Sequence record: PP359570
DNA length: 64,000 bases
Direction: 5' to 3' (one strand)
From: Escherichia phage ALITA
Shown here in pieces: positions 5,948 to 55,735 of this stretch. The stretch's first letter is position 1; every line of letters starts with the position of its first letter. The translations under genes and the position numbers were made by a program. A model generated the notes under the pieces. The model did not search any database. It saw only the letters and a program-made list of their open reading frames with translations, and had not been told where the DNA came from.

Positions 5948-6289
5948 ATGGAGCTAACAGAAGTATGGGATATCGCTAAAGAGGCGATTATCCCTCTTAT
6001 TGGCGTAATCTGGGTGGTCTTCAAACAGAAGATAGATGATATGGCAAGTGATTTGGATAAAATGGAAGACAAATACCGCGAACTAGAAAAGAAGTTGGTG
6101 TTTGTTGAATCCACTTATGCTACCAAAGCAGAACTTGCTCAAATGCTTAACCAGATCAACTCTACATTAATGGCAAATAATACTGCCTTAGAACAGAAGA
6201 TTGAAAAAATAATGGATTTAAAAAATGCTCCTGTTCAATTAATGCTAGAGGAGATTACAAAGCGCACACAAAGTAAGGACAAAAATTAA
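5948..6289 (+). CDS. Small membrane-anchored coiled-coil protein
   Basis: 113 aa; N-terminal hydrophobic helix then charged coiled-coil; stop overlaps next ATG. Confidence 0.45.
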   Translation: MELTEVWDIAKEAIIPLIGVIWVVFKQKIDDMASDLDKMEDKYRELEKKLVFVESTYATKAELAQMLNQINSTLMANNTALEQKIEKIMDLKNAPVQLMLEEITKRTQSKDKN

Positions 6290-27222: not shown

Positions 27223-27819
27223 TTACTCGAACCAATCGTCGCCAGCGCCAAACGCTTTAACTACATCATAAATGTCAAGTCCAGCTTTACCTACACCATA
27301 TGCTTTCAGTTTCCATTCGCTATCTTCCCGCACCAGGGAGGCAACGTGGCAAATGGTATTACCTGCAAGTTCTGGAGCCAAGAAGTCAAAATCCAGCAGT
27401 TCAACGTTACGTTCATCATCGAAGATTTTAAGGAAACCTTCGGTAGCGTGACCAAGGCGTTTCTTACCCGTTTCGTCATCAATAGTGATTACGAATGCAA
27501 TTTCCTGTGCTTCAGCAGAGATATTATCCAGTGTAACATCAATCTGCTCCATTTGTCCTACACCGTCACGAACATCTTCACCTGCAAAAGTAGAACGTTC
27601 AGGATCAAATTTCTGTGCGTAGCATACCAGGTGGCGAGGAGACAACAGTTCCGGCAGACCAGATGCATTGTGTCGGCAAATCAGAGCACTAACATCCAGA
27701 TCCAGTTTTTCGTTAGATTTCCAAGAGAATTCCAGACGAATGCGTTTCAGTGCTGGTGCAATCTTTTTCAGAGAAACTTTTTCGCTAGAACCTTTTTTCA
27801 GGGAAATTTTCTGAGTCAT
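27223..27819 (-). CDS. TerD-family protein (tellurium-resistance/stress-response TerD domain)
   Basis: 198 aa; alignable by eye over full length to E. coli TerD (MTQKISLKKG..VSLKK, LDLDVSAL, IAFVITIDD, EWKLKAYGVGKAGLD). Confidence 0.85.
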   Translation of the reverse strand: MTQKISLKKGSSEKVSLKKIAPALKRIRLEFSWKSNEKLDLDVSALICRHNASGLPELLSPRHLVCYAQKFDPERSTFAGEDVRDGVGQMEQIDVTLDNISAEAQEIAFVITIDDETGKKRLGHATEGFLKIFDDERNVELLDFDFLAPELAGNTICHVASLVREDSEWKLKAYGVGKAGLDIYDVVKAFGAGDDWFE

Positions 27820-27891
27820 AATTTATTATCTCCTTTGTTGTTAATTTACGTTGTCTATTTTACTAATCTTTTCTACAAAGTCAAGCGTTTT

Positions 27892-28686
27892 TTACGCTTT
27901 TGCTCCAAATTTTTTAACCCACTCGCCAAACTCTTCGGATAGCAGTTTATCGTAAAGTTCTTCGTCAGACAAGGACAAATCTGCAATACCGATAAAATCA
28001 ACGTTATCGTATTCTTTTGCCAAGTCTTTCAGGAATTTAAAGTTTGCATTACCTACACCAACCATAAACCAGTAAACAGGAGTGTTGCGGTGTTTGTTCA
28101 GCAAACTACGTACTGCTGAAGTATCCATGTTCTCCCCGTCAGTTTGGAAGAAAATCATTGCAGGAGTACGATCAACTTGTGCATCAGTATCTACAACCTG
28201 TTCTACAACAGTACGTGTAACTTCTACACGTTCTTTTTTACCAGTTAGTTTAGCAAGGAAACCCTTAGCCGGAACTTCTTCATACTCAACGACTTCGCGT
28301 GTAATATTTTTCATAGGTACACTACCGAAGTATGTATCATAGATCTCTTGCATTACTGGAGCATAAGCTGTACCACCATTGATGCAAACATTAGACATAC
28401 AAGAGCCGACATAATCATCATATACATCAGCCGTTGCAGGAGGCAGTTCAAAAGAAGAACTATTGAAAGCCCACATGTCAATCTGTGCATTATCATCAAA
28501 CTTCATACCAAACGGCAGCAGCTTACCTACAAAATCACTAACAGTGCCATCACGATACAGCTCACACATACTACCCGAAATATCTAAGGCGCTACCGACA
28601 CGAAGAACAACATCGTTAATCTTTTTCTTACGCAGAGATACGGTAAGAGTTTCTTGACGTTTTTTAAGACTGATTTTATTGGACAT
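27892..28686 (-). CDS. von Willebrand factor A (vWA) domain protein, TerY-like
   Basis: 264 aa; MIDAS motif DISGSM; adjacent to TerD. Confidence 0.7.
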   Translation of the reverse strand: MSNKISLKKRQETLTVSLRKKKINDVVLRVGSALDISGSMCELYRDGTVSDFVGKLLPFGMKFDDNAQIDMWAFNSSSFELPPATADVYDDYVGSCMSNVCINGGTAYAPVMQEIYDTYFGSVPMKNITREVVEYEEVPAKGFLAKLTGKKERVEVTRTVVEQVVDTDAQVDRTPAMIFFQTDGENMDTSAVRSLLNKHRNTPVYWFMVGVGNANFKFLKDLAKEYDNVDFIGIADLSLSDEELYDKLLSEEFGEWVKKFGAKA

Positions 28687-28687
28687 A

Positions 28688-28957
28688 TTATTTCTCCTTT
28701 CTGAGTGTAATGTTAGTAACTTCTAAATCCACTTCTACCACTTCTGTATCATATAAAATACAGTTAAGTTGACCTCTTTGTGAACCGTTCAGACACATTG
28801 CTTGGTTTGTATTAACCTTAATAAACACTAAGTTTCTGAACGTATCTAAACCAGCATCTTGATAGGCAACATAATATACGAATGTATCACCTGTGTCAAG
28901 TTCTCCAAAACATTTAGGTTCATCTGATTTGTCGTCTTTGATATTAAATTTAAGCAC
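28688..28957 (-). CDS. Hypothetical protein
   Basis: 89-aa ORF. Confidence 0.45.
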   Translation of the reverse strand: MLKFNIKDDKSDEPKCFGELDTGDTFVYYVAYQDAGLDTFRNLVFIKVNTNQAMCLNGSQRGQLNCILYDTEVVEVDLEVTNITLRKEK

Positions 28958-29513
28958 TGTCTTCTCCTTTACCTGCTCTCAAGCCTAAATAGAAAGCCTC
29001 TCTGGTGATCTTTTGCAACTCGTTTAAAGAGATAGTTACAACTAAATCATCTTCAATTTCTAGCTTTGAGTCTTCTTCTGTCTCAATGCAAGTATTATGC
29101 ACTTTGTGGTAAGGATTGTCAACACGTTTAAATTTATTATTTTCAGTGCTGAAGAAGCAATCTGGATCTTCTTCCCCATCACCCCAACCCTGGTTAGGAT
29201 CTTCTTCAGATCTTTCTGTTGGGATCTCGCCTGTAAAGTGCTCTTCTAATACCAGAGCAATCCCATCTCCAAGATCGGAAGAGAACATCAAATTACAAAC
29301 TTCTTCCCAAGGCATAGACCACTTAAATCTTTTACGATTGCCATGTTTATCTTCTTCGTTAGAGAAAACACTACCATAGCTATCATAATTCCCATACATC
29401 TCTTCGACAACCTTACCACCTTTCAAAAGAAATAGGTAGCAAGGAGAGCCATCGAAAGAGGTAGAAAGAGCAGCATTACCAGACTCTTTGCACAAGAAAC
29501 TAAAACACCCCAT
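28950..29513 (-). CDS. Hypothetical acidic protein
   Basis: 187-aa ORF. Confidence 0.5.
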   Translation of the reverse strand: MGCFSFLCKESGNAALSTSFDGSPCYLFLLKGGKVVEEMYGNYDSYGSVFSNEEDKHGNRKRFKWSMPWEEVCNLMFSSDLGDGIALVLEEHFTGEIPTERSEEDPNQGWGDGEEDPDCFFSTENNKFKRVDNPYHKVHNTCIETEEDSKLEIEDDLVVTISLNELQKITREAFYLGLRAGKGEDSA

Positions 29514-29713
29514 TATACACCAGCCTTAAGATCAATTAAAGCCAAAGTTGTTTCAGAGTGTGTTTGCTCGTCTACAGGTGCAGTCATATGATAATACAAA
29601 AAATCTTCGGCATCATACCAATCTGATTCTTGACCTTGTTTCCAACCATCAATGAAAGCATCTTCCATAATGGTTTGCAATTCTTCACGAGTTAAGTGAA
29701 TATCTTTACTCAT
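29513..29713 (-). CDS. Hypothetical small protein
   Basis: 66-aa ORF. Confidence 0.4.
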   Translation of the reverse strand: MSKDIHLTREELQTIMEDAFIDGWKQGQESDWYDAEDFLYYHMTAPVDEQTHSETTLALIDLKAGV

Positions 29714-29919
29714 TACACATTCTCCTCTTTTACCAATTCCATTGTTGAATTGTCAAAACCATCTTTAGAAGAATAGGTATAGACAGCACGTAGTTCTCGC
29801 AGGACAGTGAATACATTAGGATCATCTAACCAAGCATCCTGGAGGAGAACATAACGATCTTCATTGTCATACTGGACAGCAATCATAGAGCCAGACAGTT
29901 TGTAAATTTTAATATTCAT
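29713..29919 (-). CDS. Hypothetical small protein
   Basis: Start at internal ATG with SD AAGGAG (MNIKIYK...). Confidence 0.4.
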   Translation of the reverse strand: MNIKIYKLSGSMIAVQYDNEDRYVLLQDAWLDDPNVFTVLRELRAVYTYSSKDGFDNSTMELVKEENV

Positions 29920-29932
29920 AATATATTTCTCC

Positions 29933-31036
29933 TTAAAGTAGACCACGTTTAACAGTTTGAATCATACCATCTTCAAGAGATTGCACTTCTTGAATGTAAT
30001 CAATACGAGCAGCACGGGCTTCAGTGTTGATTCGGTTAGTTTCTTCCAACATTTTAACTAAGTTTTCTTGATCACGACGCAATGTTTCAATATCCAATAC
30101 TTGACGATTAGCAAGTTGTGTAGCTTCAATCTGGTTTTGTGCAGCCAGATCACTACCCATTGCAATAGCAGCATTAAATTCATTCAGTACGTTGTTCTGT
30201 GTATCGGCTGCTTTCTTCTGGCGCAGACTTTCAATATACATAGAAAAGTTTGCAGAGTAAGCAGGAATAACATTGTTCACAATATTACGGGCTGATCGCA
30301 TCAAACTTGCAGATACTTTCTGCATACTTTGTACACGTGGCCCCATCTGAACGCACAGTAAGCGTAAGGCTTTCAGGTCTGCAATACGAATTTCAAGCAG
30401 ATCCATAGTGTCACGAGTACGTTGACGCTCTTCTACTTCATTTTCAGGTAGTGTATTAAGGCGAACTTCTTCTTTTTCATAAGTAGCTGTTAGAAGCTCT
30501 ATATCCCTGTTTAAGCTAAGAGCATATTTTGCAATAGCCTCCTCTAAACGTTGCAGATATCGTAAAGAATCTTCTTCTTTTTTCAAGTCTGTTTGGAGTG
30601 TCTTTACCAAACCCTCAATACGATTATTGATGGTGTCAAATTCTCCAAACAAATCTTCTTTCATACCTAATACTTTCTTAACTAACTTACCTAAACCTTT
30701 AGATTGTTTAATAGAATTAGGATCAAGTTGCTTTGCTTGCTTAATAAGTGCAGTTAAACGTTCACTCATTTCATCTCCCTGAGATGAACGCTGGTGTTTA
30801 AGCACTTCAGCATTAAGGTTACGAAGAGTAAGTCCTGCATCAGCACCAACTTGTTCAATCTCTTCACGAGACATTGGAGGCAGCATTTGTACAGGTCGTG
30901 CAACAGCAGGGGCATATACAGGACTTGCATCCATAGCACTTGGAGCAAACAAAGACTTACTTTTTTCTGTTGTTGCCGTGAATACACTCATTTCAGACGG
31001 TTTGCTTTTTACGGCACTGATAAAAGGACTGGACAT
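29933..31036 (-). CDS. TelA-like (toxic anion resistance family) coiled-coil protein
   Basis: 367 aa, extended alpha-helical/coiled-coil architecture and length typical of TelA/KlaB; context with TerD/TerC. Confidence 0.55.
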   Translation of the reverse strand: MSSPFISAVKSKPSEMSVFTATTEKSKSLFAPSAMDASPVYAPAVARPVQMLPPMSREEIEQVGADAGLTLRNLNAEVLKHQRSSQGDEMSERLTALIKQAKQLDPNSIKQSKGLGKLVKKVLGMKEDLFGEFDTINNRIEGLVKTLQTDLKKEEDSLRYLQRLEEAIAKYALSLNRDIELLTATYEKEEVRLNTLPENEVEERQRTRDTMDLLEIRIADLKALRLLCVQMGPRVQSMQKVSASLMRSARNIVNNVIPAYSANFSMYIESLRQKKAADTQNNVLNEFNAAIAMGSDLAAQNQIEATQLANRQVLDIETLRRDQENLVKMLEETNRINTEARAARIDYIQEVQSLEDGMIQTVKRGLL

Positions 31037-31104
31037 TCAATTTCCTCCATATTCTTTAGTAGATGGTGATACCTCTGTACCACCATCATAACACAAATTA
31101 AGTA

Positions 31105-31956
31105 TTAAACAAACATATCTAAATAATTTGTAGTAATAAATGCTCCATCTGCTTCCAGATTAACATAACCAGTAGCATTAGTGGTTAAGAAATCCAGATC
31201 GAAGGACTCTTTAACACCCCGTACCTCAACACGAGAGATATCGAATACAGGTAGTGTAACAGCCTCTTCGTGCAATACCGTACCTTTGTAGGTTGCCTTA
31301 ATGATAAACTTGATATTACCCGTTCCAGCATCATACAAAACACTTTCAAACCCTTTGAGAGTATATTTATCACCAGAAGTGAAGTGCAAAGTTGCTTTGT
31401 TTACAGTACGTTTTTTACGAGGAGTTCCTTTCACACGTTTATGATCACTACGTTTTTTGTATTTAGGAATGAATACAAACGATACACTCTCAAGAAAGGT
31501 ATCAACATCAAGGATTTTAATATCCTCTGTTGCAGCAAATTTTGAAGTCGTTGCATCAAAATGCTTTTCCCTGCGATCATACATAAAGATATCAAACCGA
31601 TCTTCTAAATCAAACAAATTATGTATTTTAATTTCAGAATGCTTGCGCATTGCAGCAACCTTGAACTCTTCAAAACGTGGGTGTTCTACAAGTTCTTCAA
31701 GTTTTACACCAAAGACAGTATATTGCTTCGAAGTCTTTTCTGGTGTTGGCATTACAGAAGCATAATCACCGATTGCGCTCTTAAAGCAAAATTGTTCTTG
31801 ACCTGTATTTTTACCAACGAATTTACAGTATTCGTCATTGTGCATACTTTCCTTAGTAGTACCAACAAACTCAAAACCATCTTTATTCTTCTCAAGGATT
31901 TCTTGATTAAAGATCCAACCTTCCAGGCGATATACTTTACCAACTTCTAGTTTCAT
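31105..31956 (-). CDS. Hypothetical protein
   Basis: 283-aa ORF. Confidence 0.5.
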   Translation of the reverse strand: MKLEVGKVYRLEGWIFNQEILEKNKDGFEFVGTTKESMHNDEYCKFVGKNTGQEQFCFKSAIGDYASVMPTPEKTSKQYTVFGVKLEELVEHPRFEEFKVAAMRKHSEIKIHNLFDLEDRFDIFMYDRREKHFDATTSKFAATEDIKILDVDTFLESVSFVFIPKYKKRSDHKRVKGTPRKKRTVNKATLHFTSGDKYTLKGFESVLYDAGTGNIKFIIKATYKGTVLHEEAVTLPVFDISRVEVRGVKESFDLDFLTTNATGYVNLEADGAFITTNYLDMFV

Positions 31957-31991
31957 CTGTTTCTCCTTCTTATTTAATCTGTATTAAATTA

Positions 31992-32582
31992 TTAACGACG
32001 ACGTGAGCTACTAAAACTACGTTTCGACGAAGAATAACTTTTCGAAGACTTACTATAAGAGCTAATAGGGCTTGAGTAAGACTTACGAGCAGAGTAATCA
32101 CTATTCACTTTTGTTGTTGACGGGCGTGAATACGTTTGTACACTTTGCTGCTTAATTGTGTTTTGTTTAGTGGTTGTATATTTATTTCCTTGTTTATCAT
32201 AAAAACTATGCTTTTGTGTTGTATATGCTTTACTGTTAGTTGTAGGAGCAGCGTTGTTATTAATAATTGTTGTACTGCTACCACCATCTCTATAACCGCC
32301 ACCGCCACTATTACCACTCAACATATGACCAAGAAGCATACCTGTAGCAAACTCACCTACACCAGAAGAACCACTGCCGCCTCCTTGCACAACAACTGTT
32401 GAAGGTTGTGCAGGTGCTGCTTGAACAACTTGAGGTGCAGGTTGATTTACATATTGTTCATCTACCATCTGATTTGGTGTTTGTTGGTAACGTTGATTTT
32501 GTACATTTTCAGAATCATCACAACCTACCAGCAATGCACTACCTAATACAACTGCAACAATAAAAGATTTAATGTTTTTCAT
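31992..32582 (-). CDS. Lipoprotein with glycine-zipper segment and S/Y/K-rich low-complexity tail
   Basis: Signal peptide plus lipobox LLVGC; GGGSGSSGVGEFATGMLLGHML glycine zipper; start set at MKNIKS. Confidence 0.55.
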   Translation of the reverse strand: MKNIKSFIVAVVLGSALLVGCDDSENVQNQRYQQTPNQMVDEQYVNQPAPQVVQAAPAQPSTVVVQGGGSGSSGVGEFATGMLLGHMLSGNSGGGGYRDGGSSTTIINNNAAPTTNSKAYTTQKHSFYDKQGNKYTTTKQNTIKQQSVQTYSRPSTTKVNSDYSARKSYSSPISSYSKSSKSYSSSKRSFSSSRRR

Positions 32583-32775
32583 TTGTAACCCTCTCATTTA
32601 AAGTCTCAACACAATTTTTAAAATCCCTAGAGAAACAATACATCTGTTCTCCGTTCCTGTTGATAGTAATTGTATGGTTATCAATATATGTTGTCAAGAT
32701 AAAAATCAAACAAAACAACCCTAGAGCAAAACAAATATTTTCAAACAGAATCCAAAGAACACGTAAAACCACCAT
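32569..32775 (-). CDS. Small membrane protein
   Basis: 68 aa, one hydrophobic helix. Confidence 0.4.
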   Translation of the reverse strand: MVVLRVLWILFENICFALGLFCLIFILTTYIDNHTITINRNGEQMYCFSRDFKNCVETLNERVTNEKH

Positions 32776-32790
32776 CAGATCACCTCAACA

Positions 32791-32808
32791 AAGCCCCCGA
32801 AGGGGCTT
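32791..32808 (-). promoter_or_regulatory. Intra-operon hairpin (partial terminator) after TerC gene
   Basis: AAGCCCC-CGAA-GGGGCTT. Confidence 0.4.
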
Positions 32809-32814
32809 AATGAA

Positions 32815-33792
32815 TTAAGCAACAGTCTGGTCTTCTTTTTCAGGGAAGATTAAACTTGCAATAACACCCAACCCAAGAGTACCTAACACAATATACATAC
32901 TGATCGTCGGATCAATGTGTGCTGGCAGGAAACTCACTTTTGCGTGCAGAGTTTCTGCAAACGGATGATACATCAGTTTTACACCCACAAACACCAGGAC
33001 TACGATAACTGCTTTCTCCAGATGAACCAAATACTTCAGTGCAACACTAAGAACAAAGAACAGAGCACGTAAACCTAAGATTGCACAAAGCATCGAAGAG
33101 AACACCAGCAGAGGTTCTTGTGTCACTGCAATTACTGCTGGAACAGAGTCTACTGCAAAGATTACGTCTACCATTTCCATTACAAACACACAAACCAGAG
33201 CCGGAGTTGCTACACGAACACCATTTTTGATTGTGAAGAACTTCTCACCATCCATCTGATCAGATACAGGGAACAGCTTACGAACAATACGAGTAGCCCA
33301 GTGTTTAGAGTAATCAATTTCTGCATCATTATCCCCAGCGAATACCATTTTAGCCGCACAGAAAAGGATGACAGCACCGAAGAAGATATTAACATACCAG
33401 CCCAAACTCAACAAGTAAGTACCTACTGCTACAAACACACCTCGGAAGACAATTGCACCTGCAATACCCCAAAGTAGAATCTTGTGCTGCAAGTGTGTGC
33501 TTTTAATACCAAAACTTGCGAAGACTGCCACAAATACTACTAAGTTATCTACAGAAAGAGATTTCTCCAACACATAACCACTCAAGAACAAGCTCGCAAA
33601 ATCAGCACCGTGTTGGAAGTATACAAAACCATAGTAGGCTAATGATACCCCAATCCAGAAAATTGACCAGCCAATTGCAGATTTAAATGAGATCTCTTTG
33701 TTTTCTCTGTGTCCAAAGAAGTCAATACAAATCGACAAGACTAAAATACCCACTAAAACAACCACATCAATAATTGGGAAACCCAGTTGCAT
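32815..33792 (-). CDS. TerC-family integral membrane protein
   Basis: 325 aa, multi-pass; motifs EKSLSVDNLVVFVAVF and IFAVDSVPAVIAVTQEPLLVFSSMLCAILGLRALFF. Confidence 0.85.
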   Translation of the reverse strand: MQLGFPIIDVVVLVGILVLSICIDFFGHRENKEISFKSAIGWSIFWIGVSLAYYGFVYFQHGADFASLFLSGYVLEKSLSVDNLVVFVAVFASFGIKSTHLQHKILLWGIAGAIVFRGVFVAVGTYLLSLGWYVNIFFGAVILFCAAKMVFAGDNDAEIDYSKHWATRIVRKLFPVSDQMDGEKFFTIKNGVRVATPALVCVFVMEMVDVIFAVDSVPAVIAVTQEPLLVFSSMLCAILGLRALFFVLSVALKYLVHLEKAVIVVLVFVGVKLMYHPFAETLHAKVSFLPAHIDPTISMYIVLGTLGLGVIASLIFPEKEDQTVA

Positions 33793-33810
33793 TCTTTTCT
33801 CCTCTTTAAT

Positions 33811-33829
33811 GCGGAGGACAATCCTCCGC
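33811..33829 (-). promoter_or_regulatory. Hairpin upstream of TerC gene
   Basis: GCGGAGGA-CAAT-CCTCCGC. Confidence 0.35.
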
Positions 33830-33869
33830 TCTATGTCTTATACTATAAACTGTTTTTAAAGAAAGTCAA

Positions 33870-34118
33870 CTAGTTCAGTTCTGTAATTTTAAGTTTATCT
33901 TCTTTGTTAATGATAGGGAAAGCTACAGCATCACCTACGTCATCAATAAAGCAAATAGCAATACCACCTTCCACTTTGCTAATCTGACCATTAAAGGCAT
34001 GATACGGGGCAGGAACTTGATCTCCATCTTCAAGGAGAATAGCCTCGTAAACCTTGCCGATAGTACAATCACGAGTGTTTCTAAATTTTTCAAGCACTTC
34101 AACATTTACTTTACGCAT
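33870..34118 (-). CDS. Hypothetical protein
   Basis: 82-aa ORF. Confidence 0.45.
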   Translation of the reverse strand: MRKVNVEVLEKFRNTRDCTIGKVYEAILLEDGDQVPAPYHAFNGQISKVEGGIAICFIDDVGDAVAFPIINKEDKLKITELN

Positions 34119-34132
34119 ATAAAAATCCTCTC

Positions 34133-34339
34133 TTATTTGTTAGATTGAAAGATACCACGAAGTACCGCAAGAATGAACGTCACACAGACTACACTCCAAA
34201 ACGTTACAGGAACATGATGCCAGTCTAAACCGATAATGTCAATCATATAGTTGTATGCTAAAAGCAGTAGCCAACTAGGGATTAACACAATCAAGAACAC
34301 AACAATAAAACAACCTAATACTGCTAAAACACCTGCCAT
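34133..34339 (-). CDS. Small two-helix membrane protein
   Basis: 68 aa, two TM segments. Confidence 0.45.
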   Translation of the reverse strand: MAGVLAVLGCFIVVFLIVLIPSWLLLLAYNYMIDIIGLDWHHVPVTFWSVVCVTFILAVLRGIFQSNK

Positions 34340-34348
34340 ACTTTCTCC

Positions 34349-35065
34349 TTATTTCAGTTTGTAAACAATTACATTTAAACCTTTGTTCACTAGAGTTTCT
34401 TCGATCATAAGTTTTACAATATTCCAAGAACCTCCAGCCAAACCACAACCAAGCATTGGTAAACCTACAATTTTACCGCCTGAAGATACAACATCGTCTC
34501 CCATACTATCTAACGCATTGTAGATAGCTTCATAATTCAGGTCACGCTTACCTTCCTCACGACGACTATAACCATATTGTCCATATAAATTATAAATTGT
34601 CAAATTGTTTTCTGTATATTTGGTAAACGTACCTAATTTTTTATAATCACCACGTTTAGTGGCACAATCTGCTTTAAACGCACCAGGCCACTTGCTTTTA
34701 ATTTTTGGTGCAATACCACTACCCATAGTGCAAAAACAGTTACAGCAGTGTGCTATAGCGTCTATATCGCCTCTCTCGGCTGCTGCTAAAAGATCACCGT
34801 ATACCTCAATGATACCTGCCGGATAACTTGTTACAATTTCATCTTCCCAATACATTTTCTCTACACCACCGATCAGTGCAAAGTTTTGTGTAATGCGATC
34901 ATCAATATAGTTAAGACCTGAAACATACACAGCGTATTCATCCTGTGCTGTAATACCTTGCACACGAATTCTTAAGACACCATCTTTATCTGTTGCTACA
35001 CGCCCAAAATCTTTTTCTGTAATATTGGTGATAGGATCTCCGAAAGTCATTACTTTATTAGACAT
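34349..35065 (-). CDS. Macro-domain-like protein (putative ADP-ribose/nucleotide-derivative processing)
   Basis: Start at ATG with SD AAAGGGG (MSNKVMTFGD...); DAIAHCCNCFCTMGSGIA resembles macro DAIVNAAN..GGGV block; later GLPMLGCGLAGG. Confidence 0.45.
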   Translation of the reverse strand: MSNKVMTFGDPITNITEKDFGRVATDKDGVLRIRVQGITAQDEYAVYVSGLNYIDDRITQNFALIGGVEKMYWEDEIVTSYPAGIIEVYGDLLAAAERGDIDAIAHCCNCFCTMGSGIAPKIKSKWPGAFKADCATKRGDYKKLGTFTKYTENNLTIYNLYGQYGYSRREEGKRDLNYEAIYNALDSMGDDVVSSGGKIVGLPMLGCGLAGGSWNIVKLMIEETLVNKGLNVIVYKLK

Positions 35066-35915
35066 AATAATCCCCTTTAACATTAGGTTTGTTGATAATG
35101 TTGCTTTCAAAAAATTGACGTAGGAAATCAAAGTTCTCTTTGTATTTTTCAATGTTATTGTAACCTTCTGCAAGGCAACCAAAGAACAGTTGTTCTACAT
35201 AATACAAAGGAAGTTGTGAAAGTGCAATTTTAAAATCAACTTCGCTTTGACTCATTAGATACTTAATAGGACGAACCAAACATTTAGCATCAGCTTCTTG
35301 CTTAATCATTTTAATAAAAGCTGCCAGATTATTGATATAGTTGAAGTTAAGTGCAGCTTCGGTGTTGGCTTCTGTACCTTCATACTTTGCAAAGTACAGG
35401 AAAAACGTATCGTTTTCAACACCTTCTTTGTCTAAAATTTCAATAAGTTTTTCTTCGTGTGTTCCTGTAATATTAACATCATCAATGAAAATCAGAGTTT
35501 TATTACCCCAGAAATCACGATTGATAGAGAAAGTGTCACCATCGATCAAAGCCTTACGATCTTCTTTGCTAAGAAATCCATAATCATTGATATAGCTCAC
35601 TTTACGATGAACGATATCCCACTCCACTGGTTTACCACCTTTGATAGAGATTAGGTAGTTGAGGTGATCTACAAAATGTTCAGATAACACTGTAGCTGCA
35701 TTTTTCACATAGTTATATGGAGATGGAATAACAACAAAACTTTCATTTACCAGTCGTTCTTCATACTTAGAAAAGAAACTTTCAGCCAGAATGCGCCCCA
35801 TTCTTTTTGCTGCCTGGTTACTACCAAACTTTAGTTTGGAATAATCTGCAATGTTAAATTTTGCTTCCTTCAGGTTAGTAAAAGTATTAGCAAAATGTTG
35901 AATTTGATTACGCAT
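35058..35915 (-). CDS. Phosphoribosyltransferase (PRTase) family protein
   Basis: 285 aa; PRPP-binding-type motif LIFIDDVNITGTH. Confidence 0.7.
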   Translation of the reverse strand: MRNQIQHFANTFTNLKEAKFNIADYSKLKFGSNQAAKRMGRILAESFFSKYEERLVNESFVVIPSPYNYVKNAATVLSEHFVDHLNYLISIKGGKPVEWDIVHRKVSYINDYGFLSKEDRKALIDGDTFSINRDFWGNKTLIFIDDVNITGTHEEKLIEILDKEGVENDTFFLYFAKYEGTEANTEAALNFNYINNLAAFIKMIKQEADAKCLVRPIKYLMSQSEVDFKIALSQLPLYYVEQLFFGCLAEGYNNIEKYKENFDFLRQFFESNIINKPNVKGDYYV

Positions 35916-36564
35916 TAATAAGTTCCTCTTTTTTAAGTTTAGCCAACAAGTCTTCTGGATTAATAATATGACAGAACTTCATCCCTATGTCAACAGCTTT
36001 TCCATCATAAATCAAACTATCTCCAACGTGTAAAATCTCTTCTGGTGCGAGATCAAACGTCACCATTTCATCAAAAGAGAGTTTAAAAAACCTAGGATCT
36101 GGTTTACACAAGCAAAACTCGTCAGAAAAATGCATAAAGTCAAATGGTAATTTTGTTAAGCCAGAATATACAGCTAAGAAACTACCTGGTACAAAATTAG
36201 TATTGCTCTTAATACTCAAAGAGTAGGTTGAACTTAGCTCTTCCAACTTCTTGCAAAGTTCAGGATTCAATGTTGGAGGATGTTTTATAAACATTGCCAA
36301 ACAATCTCTTTTTAACCCATCCACTTTATCAAGATCAATGTTCAAACGAGTAGAAAGTGTTACCCAAGCATCCTTAGACGTTCCACAAATGCCTTTTTCT
36401 GCTTTTAAATCCAAGAAAGTTTTTACCTCTTTGTATACGGTAGCTGCTTCTGCCTCAGAGCAAGAGGCATACTCGGCAATAACCTTGTTGCGCTCTTCTG
36501 CATACAAAGGGTTAGCAGTAATAAGAGTATTCCATACATCAAAAGAAATATGCTTAACAGTCAT
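35908..36564 (-). CDS. HAD-superfamily hydrolase (phosphatase-like)
   Basis: Start at ATG with SD GGAGG (MTVKHISFDVWNTL); HAD motif I FDVWNTL and motif IV HVGDSLIYD. Confidence 0.6.
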   Translation of the reverse strand: MTVKHISFDVWNTLITANPLYAEERNKVIAEYASCSEAEAATVYKEVKTFLDLKAEKGICGTSKDAWVTLSTRLNIDLDKVDGLKRDCLAMFIKHPPTLNPELCKKLEELSSTYSLSIKSNTNFVPGSFLAVYSGLTKLPFDFMHFSDEFCLCKPDPRFFKLSFDEMVTFDLAPEEILHVGDSLIYDGKAVDIGMKFCHIINPEDLLAKLKKEELINA

Positions 36565-36566
36565 TT

Positions 36567-36722
36567 TTAATCCTCCGTCCAAAAGAATATCATCTGCTTA
36601 ATTTTATTGATTTCTTGATGTAGTAACTTTCCAGCATGTGATTGATCTTTAATATTGACAGCAAGAATTTCAAGTTCCGTTAGTTTTTCTTGGATAGCTT
36701 TATATTCATCATCTGTAAGCAT
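36567..36722 (-). CDS. Small hypothetical protein
   Basis: 51 aa (below ORF-track cutoff); SD AAGGGGAAG; stop 2 nt before HAD gene start. Confidence 0.3.
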   Translation of the reverse strand: MLTDDEYKAIQEKLTELEILAVNIKDQSHAGKLLHQEINKIKQMIFFWTED

Positions 36723-36733
36723 TTTCTTCCCCT

Positions 36734-36925
36734 TTAGAATGGTAATCTTTGTATGTCACTTATCCCCACACCAAGAAGTCTAGCAATATCCTTATCTAAA
36801 AGCAACTCTTTTTGTTCTAAAATGTTAATCAGATCTCCTAATACTTCTTTAATGTCACGATCATTTTTAGCAACGTGACCACCTGCTGTATCAACTTTAT
36901 CTTTAAAAACAAAGTAATGATCCAT
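36734..36925 (-). CDS. Small hypothetical protein
   Basis: Start at ATG with SD GGAGGG (MDHYFVF...). Confidence 0.4.
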   Translation of the reverse strand: MDHYFVFKDKVDTAGGHVAKNDRDIKEVLGDLINILEQKELLLDKDIARLLGVGISDIQRLPF

Positions 36926-36944
36926 AATACCCTCCATATAAATA

Positions 36945-36966
36945 AAGGAGGCTTTCGCCTCCTTTT
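36945..36966 (-). promoter_or_regulatory. Hairpin between AAA ATPase gene and downstream genes
   Basis: AAAGGAGGC-TTTC-GCCTCCTTT. Confidence 0.4.
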
Positions 36967-36971
36967 ATCAC

Positions 36972-38132
36972 TTAGTAAGAACGACCACCAAACACATACT
37001 CTGTGTAGTTTTTACGTTCTTTGTTTTTAATAACAACTTCAATGTTGTTGCCTTTATCATCGGTGAACACAAAGTGATAACCGTCACCACCCATTGTACG
37101 GATGTGTTTTTCATCATACGTCAGCAAGATACGGTCTACACCCCAGTAGTAGTCACCTTCTTCATCTTTGTCTTCTACTGTAACGACCCCTTCCATTTCA
37201 GGAAGATGCTCTTCTCCTAGCTTATGGTCTACAGCTACAACATAACGATTACCGCTAAACAAACCCTGTGCTGTCATACCGTCAATATCGGTATCTGCCG
37301 AAACATCTCCTGTACGATCTACACCGTTAACTTTCAGGAGTTTAACTTCTTTTGCAGCATAGCGGTGTTCAGTAATACTGATACCCATTAATGCAAGTGC
37401 ATCAGAGAATTTGTCATTAGGGTAACGGTTAAGTTCTTCTACTAGTGACTGAACAATATCAAAGTTCAAGTCCACGGAAAGATTATAAAGCGTTTCAAAA
37501 TCTGGTAAAAAGGCTTTGTTCTCCAGATTTTTAGCCAGATAGTCATCCATAGTAGCTTTAGGTAGTTTCTTATAGCTAAAACTGTAGAAAATACGGCTAG
37601 GACGATTACGCAAAAATTCTGATACATAACCATCATTTTTAGTCAATACAAACAGCTTGTCATAGCCACCTACACCATCCAGCAGAGTAAGCAAACCATC
37701 CTGTGCATCTTTTTCAGCATACAGTTTATCAAATTCATCGATCATAATCATCACAGGTTGTGTGATTTTAGACATAAAATTGATAAAGCCTTCGCCATTA
37801 AAAGCACTACCGATAGAAATAGTAGGAATACCCATTTCACGAAGAGCAGAAGACAGCATTTTAGCTTGCAAAGTTTTACCACTACCCTTCGTACCCTCAA
37901 GGAGAACACCTGTGTTTTTACCTTTGCGGCTAAGGAACGTCTTGATAATACGTTCTGATTTATCATCAGTATCACCGTATGTTACTGAAGGGACTTCCAT
38001 ATCGTTTTTAGGATACAGGAAGAACTCACCACTTTGAGTAACACCTACACCAAAAGTTCCTGCTGGAATTTCTTCAATATCTGTACCAGATTTCTGACGC
38101 AGGAAGATTTGATTGCCGAATACTGTAAACAT
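36972..38132 (-). CDS. P-loop AAA-type ATPase (paralog of 53127-54254)
   Basis: 386 aa; Walker A LLEGTKGSGKT, Walker B MIMIDEFDK. Confidence 0.75.
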   Translation of the reverse strand: MFTVFGNQIFLRQKSGTDIEEIPAGTFGVGVTQSGEFFLYPKNDMEVPSVTYGDTDDKSERIIKTFLSRKGKNTGVLLEGTKGSGKTLQAKMLSSALREMGIPTISIGSAFNGEGFINFMSKITQPVMIMIDEFDKLYAEKDAQDGLLTLLDGVGGYDKLFVLTKNDGYVSEFLRNRPSRIFYSFSYKKLPKATMDDYLAKNLENKAFLPDFETLYNLSVDLNFDIVQSLVEELNRYPNDKFSDALALMGISITEHRYAAKEVKLLKVNGVDRTGDVSADTDIDGMTAQGLFSGNRYVVAVDHKLGEEHLPEMEGVVTVEDKDEEGDYYWGVDRILLTYDEKHIRTMGGDGYHFVFTDDKGNNIEVVIKNKERKNYTEYVFGGRSY

Positions 38133-38152
38133 AGTTTTCTCCTCTATTTAAT

Positions 38153-38623
38153 TTAGTCAGATTCCCAAATGTTGTCTTTCTTAACCCACATTCGTTGATT
38201 ATCTGAACCTCTATAACGTTTCGTTGTTGGTTGATTCATATCATACTTACCATCTATCACTATGTCAACCAGTTTTTTAATTTTCTCTGGAATTTCTTCA
38301 AAAAGATATCCTGTATATAAGACAATATCTTTTTTGTTTCCAAAACAATCTCTTACCTTCTCAAGAACATACTCTACAGTGTCAATGTTCTCTTTGTCAA
38401 GAGGTTCACCACCTAAAACTGTTAATCCTTTAATGAAAGGTCGAGATAAATCTTCCAAGATAAGATCTAATGTTTCAGTAGTGAACTCTTGTCCGTAGTT
38501 ATACGACCAGGCTTTCTGGTTAAAGCAGCCACGGCAACCGTGGCTACAACCGCTCACCCACAAAGAGCATCTTACACCATCACCGTTGAGCATGTCAACA
38601 GGTTCATATCCGGCGTAATTCAA
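38153..38623 (-). CDS. nrdG: Anaerobic ribonucleotide reductase activating protein (radical SAM)
   Basis: 156 aa; CSHGCRGCFN CxxxCxxC cluster; immediately downstream of NrdD. Confidence 0.85.
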   Translation of the reverse strand: MNYAGYEPVDMLNGDGVRCSLWVSGCSHGCRGCFNQKAWSYNYGQEFTTETLDLILEDLSRPFIKGLTVLGGEPLDKENIDTVEYVLEKVRDCFGNKKDIVLYTGYLFEEIPEKIKKLVDIVIDGKYDMNQPTTKRYRGSDNQRMWVKKDNIWESD

Positions 38624-40419
38624 AAATGTTTCTCCCTTTCTAGTACCTCTTGCATTTTACCTTTATTATAAGGGCGAGAGTTAGGGGCAGAAAGGTATCC
38701 TGACACTCTTCTGATTACAGATATAGATTCTTCCTCATGATTGCCACAACTTGGACACTCGAAGCCTTTAGCTGTTGCCTTAAATTCACCATGAAAACCA
38801 CATTTGAAACACTGATCTACAGGTTGGTTCACGCCAAAATAAGGAATTTTGTTGTAGGCATAATCTACAAGAGTTTCCAGTGCTTGCAAGTTATTTTTAA
38901 GGTTTGGTGTTTCTACATAACCTATGTTCCCACCGTTACTGATTTGTGCAAAACCTTCCTCATAATCCCACTTTTGGAACGGGGTAGTGTGCATCCACAC
39001 AGGTTGATGGAAAGAGTTTGTCAAGTAGTCACGATCAATAGAACCAGGATAGCGATCATTTAATGCTTTGGCAAATTTATAGCACAAGGATTCTGCTGGT
39101 GTTCCATACAAACTAAAAGCTAAACCAGAACGTTCTTTAAATGTGCCACAGATATCCTTCATATATTGAAGGATGTTTTTACCCATTGCTTTTGGATTGG
39201 TGTTACCTGGGTATAAAATCTCCATAGCTTCTGCTAAACCTACATAACCGATACTAATAGAGGCATAACCACCTTCAAATAGTTTACCAATCTCTTCATT
39301 AGCTTCTAGTCGAGCTAAAGCCCCTTCCATAAACAATGTAGGGTTTTGAGATGCTTTGGTATGTCTAATACGGTTAACACGTAGCATATGTGCCTTATAC
39401 GCCACCTCCATATGTTGTTCCAACAGTTCAGTAAATAAGATGCCCTTTTCACGGGACTCTGCTGCAATGATAGGTAAGTTTAAAGAAACTACGCCTAAGT
39501 TGAAACGACCATCATATTTTTCACCTTGCTCTGTTGCATAGTATGACAAGAAGCTACGGCAACCCATGCTTGTGACGCGACCATCTGAAGATCCTGTAAC
39601 TTCTTTATTTAAAGGTACAGAGATAAAATCAGGATAAATGCGTTCAGCACAACACTCCATTGCCAGTTGCTTCAAATCATAGTTTGGATCGCCAGCTTTC
39701 ATGTTAACACCATCTTCCAAGAAGAAGATAACTTTAGGAAACACAGGAGTTACCCTATCTTTTCCCAATCCTTGTTTGTGCACCATTAGGTAGTTTTTAG
39801 TGATCATTCTACCAAAAGCAGAGGTATCCAAACCTAAACTAATTGTTATAAAAGGTGACTGACCATTTACACTCATTAGAGTGTTCACCTGGTAGATTAA
39901 AGTTTGCATTGCATCATAGACCTGTTTATCTACCATACGCATAGCAATATCATAATCGCCAACATCGGCATATATTTTATTAAAACTTGCTTTAACGTAT
40001 TGACTAAGCCCAGTATCAACATGTGCACAAGTTTGTCCACCATATTGGCTAGAAGCTACTGCTTGAATAATTTGAGTTAGGACAGTAGTCGCTACACCGA
40101 TAGATTTTGGTTTTTCAATATGTGCATTACCAATACGGAAACCGTTCTCAAGCATATCTTGGTAATTTACCAGGCAACAATTAGTTAAAGGTGAGAGTAA
40201 ATAATCTAAATCGTGAATGTGACCATACCCACTTTTATGCCATTCTGCCAGATCTTCCGGTAAAATATGGGTCATTGCCATGTGCTTGCTTAGGATACCT
40301 GCTAGTAAGTCTCGGTGAGTATTAACAATCATTGCAGGTTTGTTTGCATTTTCACGAGTAAATTCTTCGGATGTTTGTTCGAGGAATCCGATTACATCCT
40401 CATATAGTTTTTGGGTCAT
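38620..40419 (-). CDS. nrdD: Anaerobic ribonucleoside-triphosphate reductase
   Basis: C-terminal zinc ribbon CFKCGF...CPSCGN and glycyl-radical motif RRVSGY; start set at ATG with SD GGAGG (MTQKLYEDV). Confidence 0.9.
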   Translation of the reverse strand: MTQKLYEDVIGFLEQTSEEFTRENANKPAMIVNTHRDLLAGILSKHMAMTHILPEDLAEWHKSGYGHIHDLDYLLSPLTNCCLVNYQDMLENGFRIGNAHIEKPKSIGVATTVLTQIIQAVASSQYGGQTCAHVDTGLSQYVKASFNKIYADVGDYDIAMRMVDKQVYDAMQTLIYQVNTLMSVNGQSPFITISLGLDTSAFGRMITKNYLMVHKQGLGKDRVTPVFPKVIFFLEDGVNMKAGDPNYDLKQLAMECCAERIYPDFISVPLNKEVTGSSDGRVTSMGCRSFLSYYATEQGEKYDGRFNLGVVSLNLPIIAAESREKGILFTELLEQHMEVAYKAHMLRVNRIRHTKASQNPTLFMEGALARLEANEEIGKLFEGGYASISIGYVGLAEAMEILYPGNTNPKAMGKNILQYMKDICGTFKERSGLAFSLYGTPAESLCYKFAKALNDRYPGSIDRDYLTNSFHQPVWMHTTPFQKWDYEEGFAQISNGGNIGYVETPNLKNNLQALETLVDYAYNKIPYFGVNQPVDQCFKCGFHGEFKATAKGFECPSCGNHEEESISVIRRVSGYLSAPNSRPYNKGKMQEVLEREKHF

Positions 40420-40436
40420 TAATCCTCCGTGGAAAA

Positions 40437-40460
40437 TAAAAGCCAGCATTAAGCTGGCTT
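40437..40460 (-). terminator. Hairpin terminator upstream of nrdD
   Basis: AAAAGCCAGC-ATTA-AGCTGGCTTT. Confidence 0.5.
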
Positions 40461-53126: not shown

Positions 53127-54254
53127 ATGAAATACACGATTTATGGTGATATTGTAAGTGTAAATAAAGATATGGGCGTGGAATCTAACTATCTTCCACC
53201 TGGATTCTATACTGTTAGTCGTGATCCCCTTGGCAATTATTTTTTAAGCCGTGGTAATCTAACAGGTGTACCGGATGTTTTGTATGGTGAAACAGAAAAA
53301 CGAGCAAATCACGTTATCCGTACATTCCATCGCCGGAGTGCACAAGGTAAAAACACAGGCTTGCTTCTGACAGGAACTAAGGGCAGTGGTAAAACTATGT
53401 TAGCCAAACTCATTAGTCGTGACCTTGTAGAAGAAGGTATTCCAACTATTATGGTTACTCAAGCCTACAGCGATGCTAATTTCATTGAACTTATTAGCAA
53501 GATCACCGACAAAGCAGTGATTATTTTTGACGAGTTTGATAAAGTATATGAGAAGAAACAAGATCAAGAAGCACTTCTCACTTTGTTAGATGGTACTGGG
53601 AGTGGTAATAAACTGTTTATTCTAACTAAAAACAGTGGTTTTATCTCTGAATTCTTTTTAAATCGTCCTAGTCGTGTGTTTTATAATTTTAATTATGATA
53701 AAATCTCACTAGAAACTATGATTGACTATTTAGATAAAAACTTGGATAACAAAGCACACTTTGATAATTTCCAAAGGCTTTGGGATGTAAGTTTAGAGTT
53801 GTCCTTTGATGTGATCCAAGGTATAGTAGAAGAACTTAATTTCTACCCTGATTTATCCTTTAAAGAATGCATCTCTATGATGGGCGTTTCTTTGGGTGGT
53901 GGTAATAAATGGGATATCAGCAGCGTTGTTATTAATGGAAAACTTCAGAAAGTTAGCTGGGTATCTAGTTGGCATAACTTCACACCTGCAATCTTCTTAG
54001 GTGGCTCGTGCACACTAGACGTGTACTTGTCATCTCCAAGTGATGCAGACTCTAAAGAAGCCCTTGCTAATAGCTCTTACGTGGTTTTTGATGATGAAGG
54101 CGATGCTCGAATTCCATTGAATGCGACAAAAATGAAAGCAGATCTTATTACAGGCGGTAAAATCGTTGTGTTTAGTGATGATCCAGAAGATTCTTTCCGT
54201 ATTGTTCTGGAACCAACTATCACCAATGGTGCAACTTTGGCAAGCGTGTTTTAA
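53127..54254 (+). CDS. P-loop AAA-type ATPase (paralog of 36972-38132)
   Basis: 375 aa; Walker A LLTGTKGSGKT, Walker B IIFDEFDK; co-linear similarity to the minus-strand paralog. Confidence 0.75.
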   Translation: MKYTIYGDIVSVNKDMGVESNYLPPGFYTVSRDPLGNYFLSRGNLTGVPDVLYGETEKRANHVIRTFHRRSAQGKNTGLLLTGTKGSGKTMLAKLISRDLVEEGIPTIMVTQAYSDANFIELISKITDKAVIIFDEFDKVYEKKQDQEALLTLLDGTGSGNKLFILTKNSGFISEFFLNRPSRVFYNFNYDKISLETMIDYLDKNLDNKAHFDNFQRLWDVSLELSFDVIQGIVEELNFYPDLSFKECISMMGVSLGGGNKWDISSVVINGKLQKVSWVSSWHNFTPAIFLGGSCTLDVYLSSPSDADSKEALANSSYVVFDDEGDARIPLNATKMKADLITGGKIVVFSDDPEDSFRIVLEPTITNGATLASVF

Positions 54255-54268
54255 GTAAGCCAGCAAAT

Positions 54269-54295
54269 AAAAACCCGCTTCGGCGGGTTTTCTTG
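54269..54295 (+). terminator. Intrinsic terminator
   Basis: AAAAACCCGC-TTCG-GCGGGTTTTCTTG. Confidence 0.75.
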
Positions 54296-54328: not shown

Positions 54329-55735
54329 ATGCCAGCACCAAAATCATGGGAACAATATAAAGAAGAATTAACACCCCTTGCTAAAAATCACAACATTCAG
54401 ATTCTGGGTTATATTGGTGAATGGAAAGGGAGCAAGACTAAACTTAAGCTATCTTGCTCTGATCATGGGGAGTGGGAAAGTACCATAATCAATAGCTTTA
54501 AAACTAAAGGCGGTAAATGTTGCCCCGATTGCAATGGTCGTAGAAAAGTAACAGAAGAAAAGGAATGTATTTCCCTTGTTGATGTTGCTAAAGAAAGAGG
54601 GTTTACTTTTATAGGTCTTGCCGAAGAGTGGCGAGGTGTGCTAACAAAAATCCGCATAGTTTGCCCTAAACATGGAGAGTGGAACACCACGACCATTAGT
54701 GGTTTTAGGAAGGGACGTGGTTGTCCGGCATGTGCAAGTAATAAGCCGTTAACATGGGAAACAGAATTACCGATCTTGGAAGAGATAGCACAGAAGAAGG
54801 GGTATCAGGTGTTAGGGTACGTGGGAGAATGGAAAGGGATTGATACAAAACTTGATTTGTTGTGTCACTGTGGTAACAGATGGGATACTACAAGTATTAA
54901 CAGTTTTAAACATGATCATGGTTGTCCTTTATGTGGGTATGAGAATACAAGGAAGGCACAAACAATACCCGACGATCAACATATTGCAGATTTCTTTTCT
55001 ACAGGGAAATTTAAGGAAGGCACTATCTTTACCAATACAGGGAAACGTAGTTGTAGTAAAAACAAGGACATTATCTGGATGATCGAATGTCCTGTTTGCT
55101 CTCATGATGAGTATGTGCAAGCAGGTGTATGTGATGGTAAGTTTTATATGACACGTAGCGATCTTAAGGCTGGACACTTGCCCTGCCGCTGTGCAACTAA
55201 CTCTCATTATACAGAAAATCAGATTACCTACAGGGTAAAAAAGGAAGTAGAAGGGAGAGGGTATGTCTGGGTAGGTTGGATCGGTAAACCGTCTATAAGA
55301 CTGGGTAATTTTAAATATCTTTGTCTTGTTCATGGGGAACAAATTGGTAGTGCTTATCGCTTACTATATCAGGATAATGGTTGTCCACAATGTGCAGGTC
55401 ATAGTCAGCAGCAATTGTATGTTAATGTTGTTAAAGATAATGGTATTATAGTTGCTCTTAAGTTTGGTATATCTAAAGATAGTGCTAGGAGATTAAACAT
55501 TCAAAATAGGCGTAATATGTTTTTTATGGAGCGTATTTGTTTATATGATTTTAGTACAGTGAAGCAGTGTAAGGCTGCTGAAAGAGCTATAAAGAAAAAA
55601 TTAAAAACTGGTATCTTAACAGCAAGAGAGTTGAAAGATGGTTATACAGAAACAGTAAGTGTTTCTGATTTGGAAAATCTTCAAAAAATTATTACACAAT
55701 ATGGTGGCAAATTAGTATACAGTAAGGAGGTGTAA
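54329..55735 (+). CDS. Zinc-ribbon repeat protein with C-terminal T5orf172/GIY-YIG-like domain
   Basis: 468 aa; four or more repeats of C..HGEW...F...GCP.C; C-terminal LYVNVVKDNGIIVALKFGIS...RRL block. Confidence 0.55.
   Translation: MPAPKSWEQYKEELTPLAKNHNIQILGYIGEWKGSKTKLKLSCSDHGEWESTIINSFKTKGGKCCPDCNGRRKVTEEKECISLVDVAKERGFTFIGLAEEWRGVLTKIRIVCPKHGEWNTTTISGFRKGRGCPACASNKPLTWETELPILEEIAQKKGYQVLGYVGEWKGIDTKLDLLCHCGNRWDTTSINSFKHDHGCPLCGYENTRKAQTIPDDQHIADFFSTGKFKEGTIFTNTGKRSCSKNKDIIWMIECPVCSHDEYVQAGVCDGKFYMTRSDLKAGHLPCRCATNSHYTENQITYRVKKEVEGRGYVWVGWIGKPSIRLGNFKYLCLVHGEQIGSAYRLLYQDNGCPQCAGHSQQQLYVNVVKDNGIIVALKFGISKDSARRLNIQNRRNMFFMERICLYDFSTVKQCKAAERAIKKKLKTGILTARELKDGYTETVSVSDLENLQKIITQYGGKLVYSKEV

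Follow-up and report, generated by a model that had tools for sequence, protein, structure and literature searches.

What kind of ATPase is encoded at 36972..38132 of the window, why is a relative of it kept elsewhere, and does it belong with the Ter-like genes that lie beside it? The window is a stretch of 64,000 nucleotides from Escherichia phage ALITA (sequence record PP359570), and the two genes, ORF A (386 aa, minus strand, 36972..38132) and ORF B (375 aa, plus strand, 53127..54254), were found exactly where the initial annotation had placed them. Both carry the quoted Walker A sequence GTKGSGKT, starting at aa 80 in ORF A and aa 83 in ORF B, and the Walker B strings (MIMIDE and VIIFDE, respectively); the co-linear core segments offered as an example of their similarity (KNTGVLLEGTKGSGKTLQAKMLS in ORF A and KNTGLLLTGTKGSGKTMLAKLIS in ORF B) are also present. 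Across 36000-39000 the DNA is 100% identical to phage inny (MN850601.1) and 98.6% identical to phi92, which belongs to the genus Justusliebigvirus in the subfamily Stephanstirmvirinae. ORF A and ORF B are the same genes as phi92 gp190 and gp221, from which nothing of substance differs, and both are annotated there as ‘ATPase; predicted AAA domain fold; putative ATPase or Zn metalloprotease’; in the inny record ORF A is labelled only ‘hypothetical protein’. The presence of two related ATPase genes was thus already known from existing annotation, and the pair falls in a catalogued family, PHROG 2376. What we add is the placement of this family in the classical AAA clade, its large size, its near-complete confinement to phages, and two accessory domains that have no description elsewhere.

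We compared the two proteins with each other and with the family profile. BLASTP aligned aa 2–253 of ORF A with aa 3–256 of ORF B at 47% identity and 70% positives (E 1e-81, 2 gaps), an alignment of about 254 residues that takes in the N-terminal β domain, all of the AAA core and the lid, and so extends well beyond a generic P-loop. Over the C-terminal ~125 aa, BLASTP found no similarity between the two, but the profiles of the two ortholog groups are co-linear there when compared with hhalign (probability 90.6%, E 1.3e-6, 109 columns, 18% identity), suggesting that the C-terminal domains are probably homologous as well. The initial annotation, which described similarity through the ATPase core, had therefore recognised the paralogs correctly while understating how far they resemble each other. 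PHROG 2376 matches both proteins end to end (ORF A, E 3.6e-104, aa 1–376 on profile positions 2–359 of 363; ORF B, E 6.6e-108, aa 1–367 on positions 1–357) and, since the profiles are also co-linear, we regard ORF A and ORF B as divergent paralogs whose homology runs from end to end, the C-terminus being the part that evolves fast. Between inny and phi92, ORF A differs at 13 nucleotides and 2 amino acids (dN/dS 0.05), and ORF B at 23 nucleotides and no amino acid (dN/dS 0); on these small substitution counts, both genes appear to be under purifying selection.

The AF2 monomer models (pLDDT 85.9 for ORF A and 84.6 for ORF B) comprise three parts: a five-strand N-terminal β domain, an AAA α/β core with a helical lid, and a β-rich C-terminal domain. 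In ORF A (all features on the minus strand), the AF2 secondary structure places the N-terminal domain at aa 1–55 (37968..38132), where it ends in Y52-G53, and the C-terminal domain at aa 255–386 (36975..37370). The AAA core and lid between them (aa 57–252, 37377..37964) were delimited from motifs, conservation, profile alignment and Foldseek, and contain Walker A (G80–T87, 37872-37895), Walker B (M128–E133, 37734-37751) and R177-P-S-R180 (37593-37604), together with the pore-loop motif F111-N-G113, L147-LTLLDG153 and the sensor-1 residue N166. The corresponding elements of ORF B, on the plus strand, are Walker A at 53373-53396, Walker B at 53517-53534, RPSR at 53664-53675 and a C-terminal domain of aa 257–375 (53895-54251). 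Foldseek matched the ORF A model best to Bcs1, YjoB, Rpt and FtsH. For the accessory domains of ORF A and ORF B, profile searches of the PDB with three domains returned nothing significant, and neither C-terminal domain nor the N-terminal domain of ORF A has a match in Pfam.

Conservation was assessed over 149 relatives with no more than 50% mutual identity (median 38% identity to ORF A). Eight residues, K86, D132, E133, G153, N166, R177, P178 and R180, are conserved in 149/149, with D152 and Y52 each in 148 and G53 in 145. The LLTLLDG segment is present in both ORF A and ORF B, and the Deep Blue and SAC12B relatives carry RPGRF at the position of RPSR. The lid invariants are F224, D225, E232, E233 and N235, with no arginine among them. 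Position 111 is aromatic (F, Y or W) in 115/149 relatives and G113 is kept in 132; in ORF A the loop reads AFNG, and its AFNGEG segment aligns with KYVGDG of spastin and KWVGEG of fidgetin-like-1, while in ORF B it reads AYSD, with D at the third position where ORF A has G.

By its motifs and profile matches, the family belongs to the classical AAA clade (p97, FtsH, Bcs1-like). Both proteins exceed the PF00004 cutoff of 21.2 bits (ORF A 29.4, ORF B 38.9), and they combine Walker A and B with the sensor-1 asparagine, the two arginines and the inter-subunit signalling motif. When the family profile was searched against all PDB sequences, the top 60 matches were all classical AAA proteins (E down to 4.6e-12), including Cdc48/p97, VAT, NSF, Rix7/NVL, Afg2 and Pex1. 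The alignments extend from Walker A to RPsR and include LLtllDG; these last two motifs lie opposite RPGR and LLTLMDG of Cdc48/p97, respectively. The family has its motif set and fold in common with Cdc48/p97 D2, the FtsH AAA module, Bcs1 and Bacillus subtilis YjoB. It differs from these classical AAA proteins in being only 15–20% identical to them, in N- and C-terminal β domains that are unmatched in Pfam and PDB sequences, and in consisting of a single AAA module, without a membrane anchor or protease domain, that is essentially restricted to phages. A similarity of ORF B to influenza NS1 was judged to be due to chance.

The main rival to a protein-directed role is one linked to DNA, in which the family would be a replication or recombination accessory AAA+ protein of the helicase-loader or clamp-loader type. 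It is suggested only by the gene order in the distant crAss-like relatives cr115_1 and cr118_1, where the ATPase lies in a replication/recombination module (helicase, Sak4, primase, ATPase, RuvC/Mre11, exonuclease), and by weak profile matches to clamp-loader and DnaC-like families of PHROG (for ORF B, E 1e-8 to 1e-6) and to Hda of NCBIfam (29.8 bits against a cutoff of 194.8). These loader-like matches all fall far below the family thresholds, whereas PF00004 is the top Pfam family in 43/43 aligned family members, none of which matched a DnaA, DnaC, IstB, pol III δ′ or clamp-loader family in Pfam. The PDB matches to classical AAA proteins point the same way, as does the presence of LLxLxDG and the double-arginine RPxR in proteins that have no invariant lid arginine able to serve as sensor 2. 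Although the ‘SR’ of RPSR is reminiscent of the SRC position, we read the alignments as showing the classical-clade pattern, given the invariant R177 that precedes it by three residues. Outside the crAss-like phages, at 11 phage loci that we inspected, the gene sits among small uncharacterised genes and not in replication modules. Overall, a DNA-linked role is unlikely.

The phi92 annotation raises a second alternative, that ORF A and ORF B are FtsH-like Zn metalloproteases, and FtsH AAA modules are indeed among the structural matches. The sequence contradicts this: the HExxH motif is missing, there is no transmembrane segment that could act as a membrane anchor (maximum 19-residue Kyte-Doolittle score 1.0), and Pfam identified neither Peptidase_M41 nor any other protease family. 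The C-terminal domain is β-rich, whereas the M41 protease is helical. We rejected an FtsH-type identity and find the metalloprotease half of the phi92 wording unsupported and barely credible.

On balance we favour a reading in which ORF A and ORF B are catalytically competent paralogs, as their intact active-site residues predict, and act as phage classical-clade AAA proteins that form ring-shaped remodellers or unfoldases, with the C-terminal domain picking the client. The mechanism is taken from the motif set, namely the trans-acting double arginine, the DG signalling motif and the aromatic-x-Gly pore loop. Subunits would form a ring, with R177 and R180 of each acting in trans on the next subunit's ATP. 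Driven by ATP hydrolysis, the pore loop would pull on a protein client, unfold it or remodel it. The choice of client would fall to the variable C-terminal domain, possibly together with the N-domain. Two paralogs would then amount to one motor with two specificity modules, directed at different clients or combined in a mixed ring, and the suggestion in the initial annotation that the two ATPases have different partners fits a shared motor with very different C-terminal domains. Neither kind of accessory domain has a PDB or Pfam match, so that their role in substrate choice is conjecture. Against a remodeller stand the D at the third pore-loop position of ORF B, the crAss-like gene order described above, and the lack of a conserved partner gene that would point to a client. 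For the last of these, all-against-all ORF clustering of 37 diverse family loci recovered no shared neighbour gene.

The position of ORF A had been described as the head of a Ter-like operon, and the cluster itself is real. Pfam identified seven gene types on the minus strand downstream of ORF A (27223..36582): TerD (27223-27819, E 5e-28), vWA-TerF (27892-28686, E 7e-39), TelA (29933-31036, E 5e-34), TerC (32815-33792, E 1e-38), Macro (34349-35065, E 2e-7), PRTase_3 (35058-35915, E 1e-41) and HAD (35908-36582, E 1e-5). These match components of the Ter stress-response and defence system (Anantharaman, Iyer and Aravind 2012), for which TerD, TerC, TelA, vWA-TerF, PRTase and HAD are among the components given in PMC7824862; an AAA ATPase is absent from those given there. 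ORF A lies directly 5′ of the array of a gp189-like gene, HAD, PRTase and others through TerC and TelA to TerD, all on one strand; Klebsiella phage KP13-26 retains the arrangement despite a different upstream neighbour. ORF A could on this ground be a working part of the Ter-like system, as a regulator or chaperone.

Comparison with other phages weighs against this. The sister phage phAPEC8 has the same cluster without an ATPase, its only copy lying ~15 kb away at the ORF B position, and the linkage of ATPase and Ter-like genes was not conserved beyond phi92-like and KP13-26-like phages. Acinetobacter phage ME3, which is reported to have a fairly complete Ter system (PMC7824862), has no Ter gene annotated within 12 kb of its ATPase gene in a sparsely annotated record, and at the other family loci that we inspected Ter genes are not annotated near the ATPase. 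Ter linkage did not recur across lineages in phAPEC8, at these loci or in the 37-locus clustering. Within the window, a conserved terminator-like hairpin separates ORF A from the Ter-like cluster. On the comparative synteny and the intervening hairpin we rejected a functional link, and a role for ORF A within the Ter-like system has very little likelihood. Position and cluster stand as first described; the functional sense of ‘head of the operon’ does not, given the hairpin, the phAPEC8 synteny and the other loci, and membership of ORF A in a Ter-like module appears to be a misleading link that should be dropped.

The transcription signals around ORF A were examined by consensus scan and folding. 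The hairpin, AAAGGAGGC-GAAA-GCCTCCTTT followed by ATTTAT (36944..36965, minus strand), lies 7 nt past the ORF A stop, folds with -18.8 kcal/mol, and is GC-rich with a tetraloop and a T-rich tail. The KP13-26 ortholog has CAAGGGGGC-GAAA-GCCCCTTTG in the same place, and ORF B is followed after 16 nt by AAAACCCGC-TTCG-GCGGGTTTT (54270..54291, plus strand). Comparable hairpins with different stems lie 3′ of the ATPase gene in KP13-26, phAPEC8, Tr1, L006 and ORF B, and we infer that they act as terminators. With a hairpin after its stop codon, ORF A looks like the end of a unit and not the head of the next. On its other side only 20 bp, holding nothing but a ribosome-binding site, separate it from nrdG. 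We rejected a dedicated ORF A promoter: the sole strong upstream site, an 11/12 sigma-70-like sequence at 38268-38240, lies within the nrdG coding sequence and recurs in phAPEC8, whose nrdG is not followed by an ATPase gene. Across the region, promoter-like sites show no excess (35, against 28.7 ± 6.4 in shuffled sequence). ORF A is probably the last gene of the nrdDG unit, transcribed with nrdDG and not with the Ter-like genes. The analysis bears out that the two paralogs are divergent and lie on opposite strands, in transcription units of their own.

The origin of the two copies can be read from synteny. ORF B is the last gene of a plus-strand run of small genes, beside a divergent intergenic region, and has full-length orthologs in phAPEC8 (gp014, 64% identity) and Citrobacter phage Tr1 (71%). 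Its upstream small genes are common to the phAPEC8 and Tr1 loci, and a downstream ‘endonuclease’ gene and a 183-aa gene are shared with phAPEC8. Because of this orthology and these flanking genes, we consider ORF B to be the ancestral, syntenic Stephanstirmvirinae copy. In phAPEC8, a Phapecoctavirus, and in Tr1 the single ATPase is the ORF B ortholog, there too with a terminator-like hairpin, and a counterpart of ORF A is missing even though phAPEC8 has both nrdDG and the Ter-like array. In phAPEC8, nrdD and nrdG are followed, after a gap of 12 bp, by gp046, hydrolase, HAD and PRTase and further on by TerC and TelA, and the ATPase is missing; phi92 and inny carry the ATPase and its hairpin precisely in the interval from nrdG to the gp046/gp189-like gene. 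This arrangement indicates that ORF A is an extra copy whose insertion between nrdG and the gp189-like gene brought in a terminator-like hairpin of its own. ORF A-type proteins were confined to Justusliebigvirus and KP13-26-like Klebsiella phages (71–75% identity), and their nearest relative outside this group is a 368-aa group with 46% identity. In a tree built by neighbour-joining only, the A and B clades appear as old sisters, which may reflect either an old duplication or a transfer between phages.

The family as a whole is very large and essentially phage-restricted. A profile search of 1.84 billion representative proteins gave 3,238 clusters at E <= 1e-30, nearly all of 350–440 aa, and none of the cluster members has an informative name. 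In cellular genomes we found only 30 loci among 185,579 bacterial and archaeal species genomes, nearly all on MAG contigs, and in a phage collection 302 records contain the family. Among these are Stephanstirmvirinae, GAP32/BF-type jumbo phages, Herelleviridae, Lactococcus 949-like phages and crAss-like phages. Full-length structural matches in BFVD were solely to uncharacterised phage ‘ATPase’ proteins, and a full-text literature search found nothing on the function of the PHROG 2376 family. The longer relatives P0200 (617 aa) and P0235 (523 aa) have no additional Pfam domain, so that domain fusions were not found. tRNA genes flank the ATPase gene in phages BF and 949; the 64,000-nt window has no tRNA gene anywhere, and a tRNA linkage was not borne out.

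Many profile matches end near position 260–310 of 382, indicating that the C-terminal domain is variable across the family. This variability, the 3,238 clusters, the restriction to phages and the intact catalytic residues fit a more specific and more tentative version of the remodeller reading, in which PHROG 2376 would be a phage unfoldase family retargeted by its hypervariable C-terminus to dismantle host proteins, for takeover or anti-defence. Phages with two copies, such as the phi92-like phages and SAC12B, might then hit two targets. A search for defence and anti-defence families (PADLOC and NCBIfam) gave only sub-threshold P-loop matches and no specific family. A conserved ATP-driven remodeller in many unrelated tailed phages would be a reasonable experimental target.

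A final alternative concerns the pair itself, in that ORF A and ORF B could be subunits of a single hetero-oligomeric ring of the Pex1/Pex6 or Rpt1-6 kind, displaying both types of C-terminal domain, and would then not act separately. The AAA cores are 47% identical with fully conserved interface and arginine-finger residues, and purifying selection keeps both copies. Set against this, the two genes lie in different transcription units, and most carriers of the family, phAPEC8 and Tr1 among them, possess just one copy, which requires that a homo-oligomer be functional. We hold a co-assembly of this kind to be improbable. Lactobacillus phage SAC12B offers a second example, with two copies whose N-domain, AAA core and lid share 35% identity and whose C-termini are unrelated; the two-copy pattern arose independently there, which would also suit a mixed ring. 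In the phi92-like phages a two-copy system occurs naturally, in an Escherichia coli host that is tractable.

In six lineages, the genes of this ATPase family (PHROG 2376) share a feature past their 3' ends. Folding of the sequence past the stop codon in six lineages (ORF A/phi92 gp190, ORF B/phi92 gp221, KP13-26, phAPEC8, Tr1 and the further relative L006) gave a GC-rich hairpin with a T-rich tail within ~25 nt of the ATPase stop codon in all six. After ORF A the hairpin lies at window 36944–36965 (minus strand) and after ORF B at 54270–54291 (plus strand), with the others at ~7175–7200 of the KP13-26 locus (L009), ~6150–6170 of the phAPEC8 locus (L002), ~8127–8147 of the Tr1 locus (L007) and ~9113–9135 of L006. 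The loops are GAAA, UUCG or UACG tetraloops, except in L006, where the loop is 5 nt, and the stem sequences are not the same from lineage to lineage. From these predicted folds, the family ATPase gene and its own putative terminator appear to move together.

The unrelated Lactobacillus phage SAC12B (Herelleviridae) carries two family members (L045 19941–21095 and 24203–25303), which are 35% identical from the N-domain through the AAA core to the lid but have diverged C-termini, repeating the pattern of ORF A and ORF B in the window. Short relatives of 303–322 aa, without most of the C-terminal domain, are present in the crAss-like phages cr115_1 (L041 6992–7903) and cr118_1 (L042 6899–7867). 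These are flanked by a primase on one side and RuvC/Mre11/exonuclease genes on the other, the one gene context with informative annotation that the family yielded.

In a phmmer search, residues ~200–295 of ORF B (window 53727–54011), which take in the lid helices of the AAA module and the first strands of the C-terminal domain, matched the effector domain of influenza A NS1 at a borderline level over ~90 aa (E = 2e-4, 24.6 bits). The predicted secondary structure of this stretch is at odds with that of NS1, and the resemblance is most likely due to chance. Downstream of ORF B, the ‘endonuclease’ (window 54329–55735, plus strand) has 468 aa, compared with ~396 aa in phi92 and phAPEC8. Its three tblastn matches to one and the same phAPEC8 segment point to tandem Cys-rich repeat modules (CPxC...), the copy number of which, as the sequences indicate, probably differs among phages.

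The phi92 record places a ‘hypothetical tRNA’ antisense within gp190 (phi92 117581–117668, corresponding to window ~37404–37491, plus strand). ARAGORN predicted no tRNA there or elsewhere in the 64-kb window, and Rfam gave no match above threshold across window 36000–39000. The window nrdD (38620–40449, minus strand) is a single unbroken ORF of 609 aa, whereas phi92 nrdD (L001 18798–20876) is annotated as two joined pieces separated by ~246 bp (‘spliced variant’); the intervening element is thus missing from the window. In the Ter-like cluster, a Macro-domain protein gene directly follows the ComF-like PRTase and HAD phosphatase genes (window 34349–36582, minus strand), a position suggesting that the phage version of the Ter-like module includes an ADP-ribose or nucleotide-derivative step.
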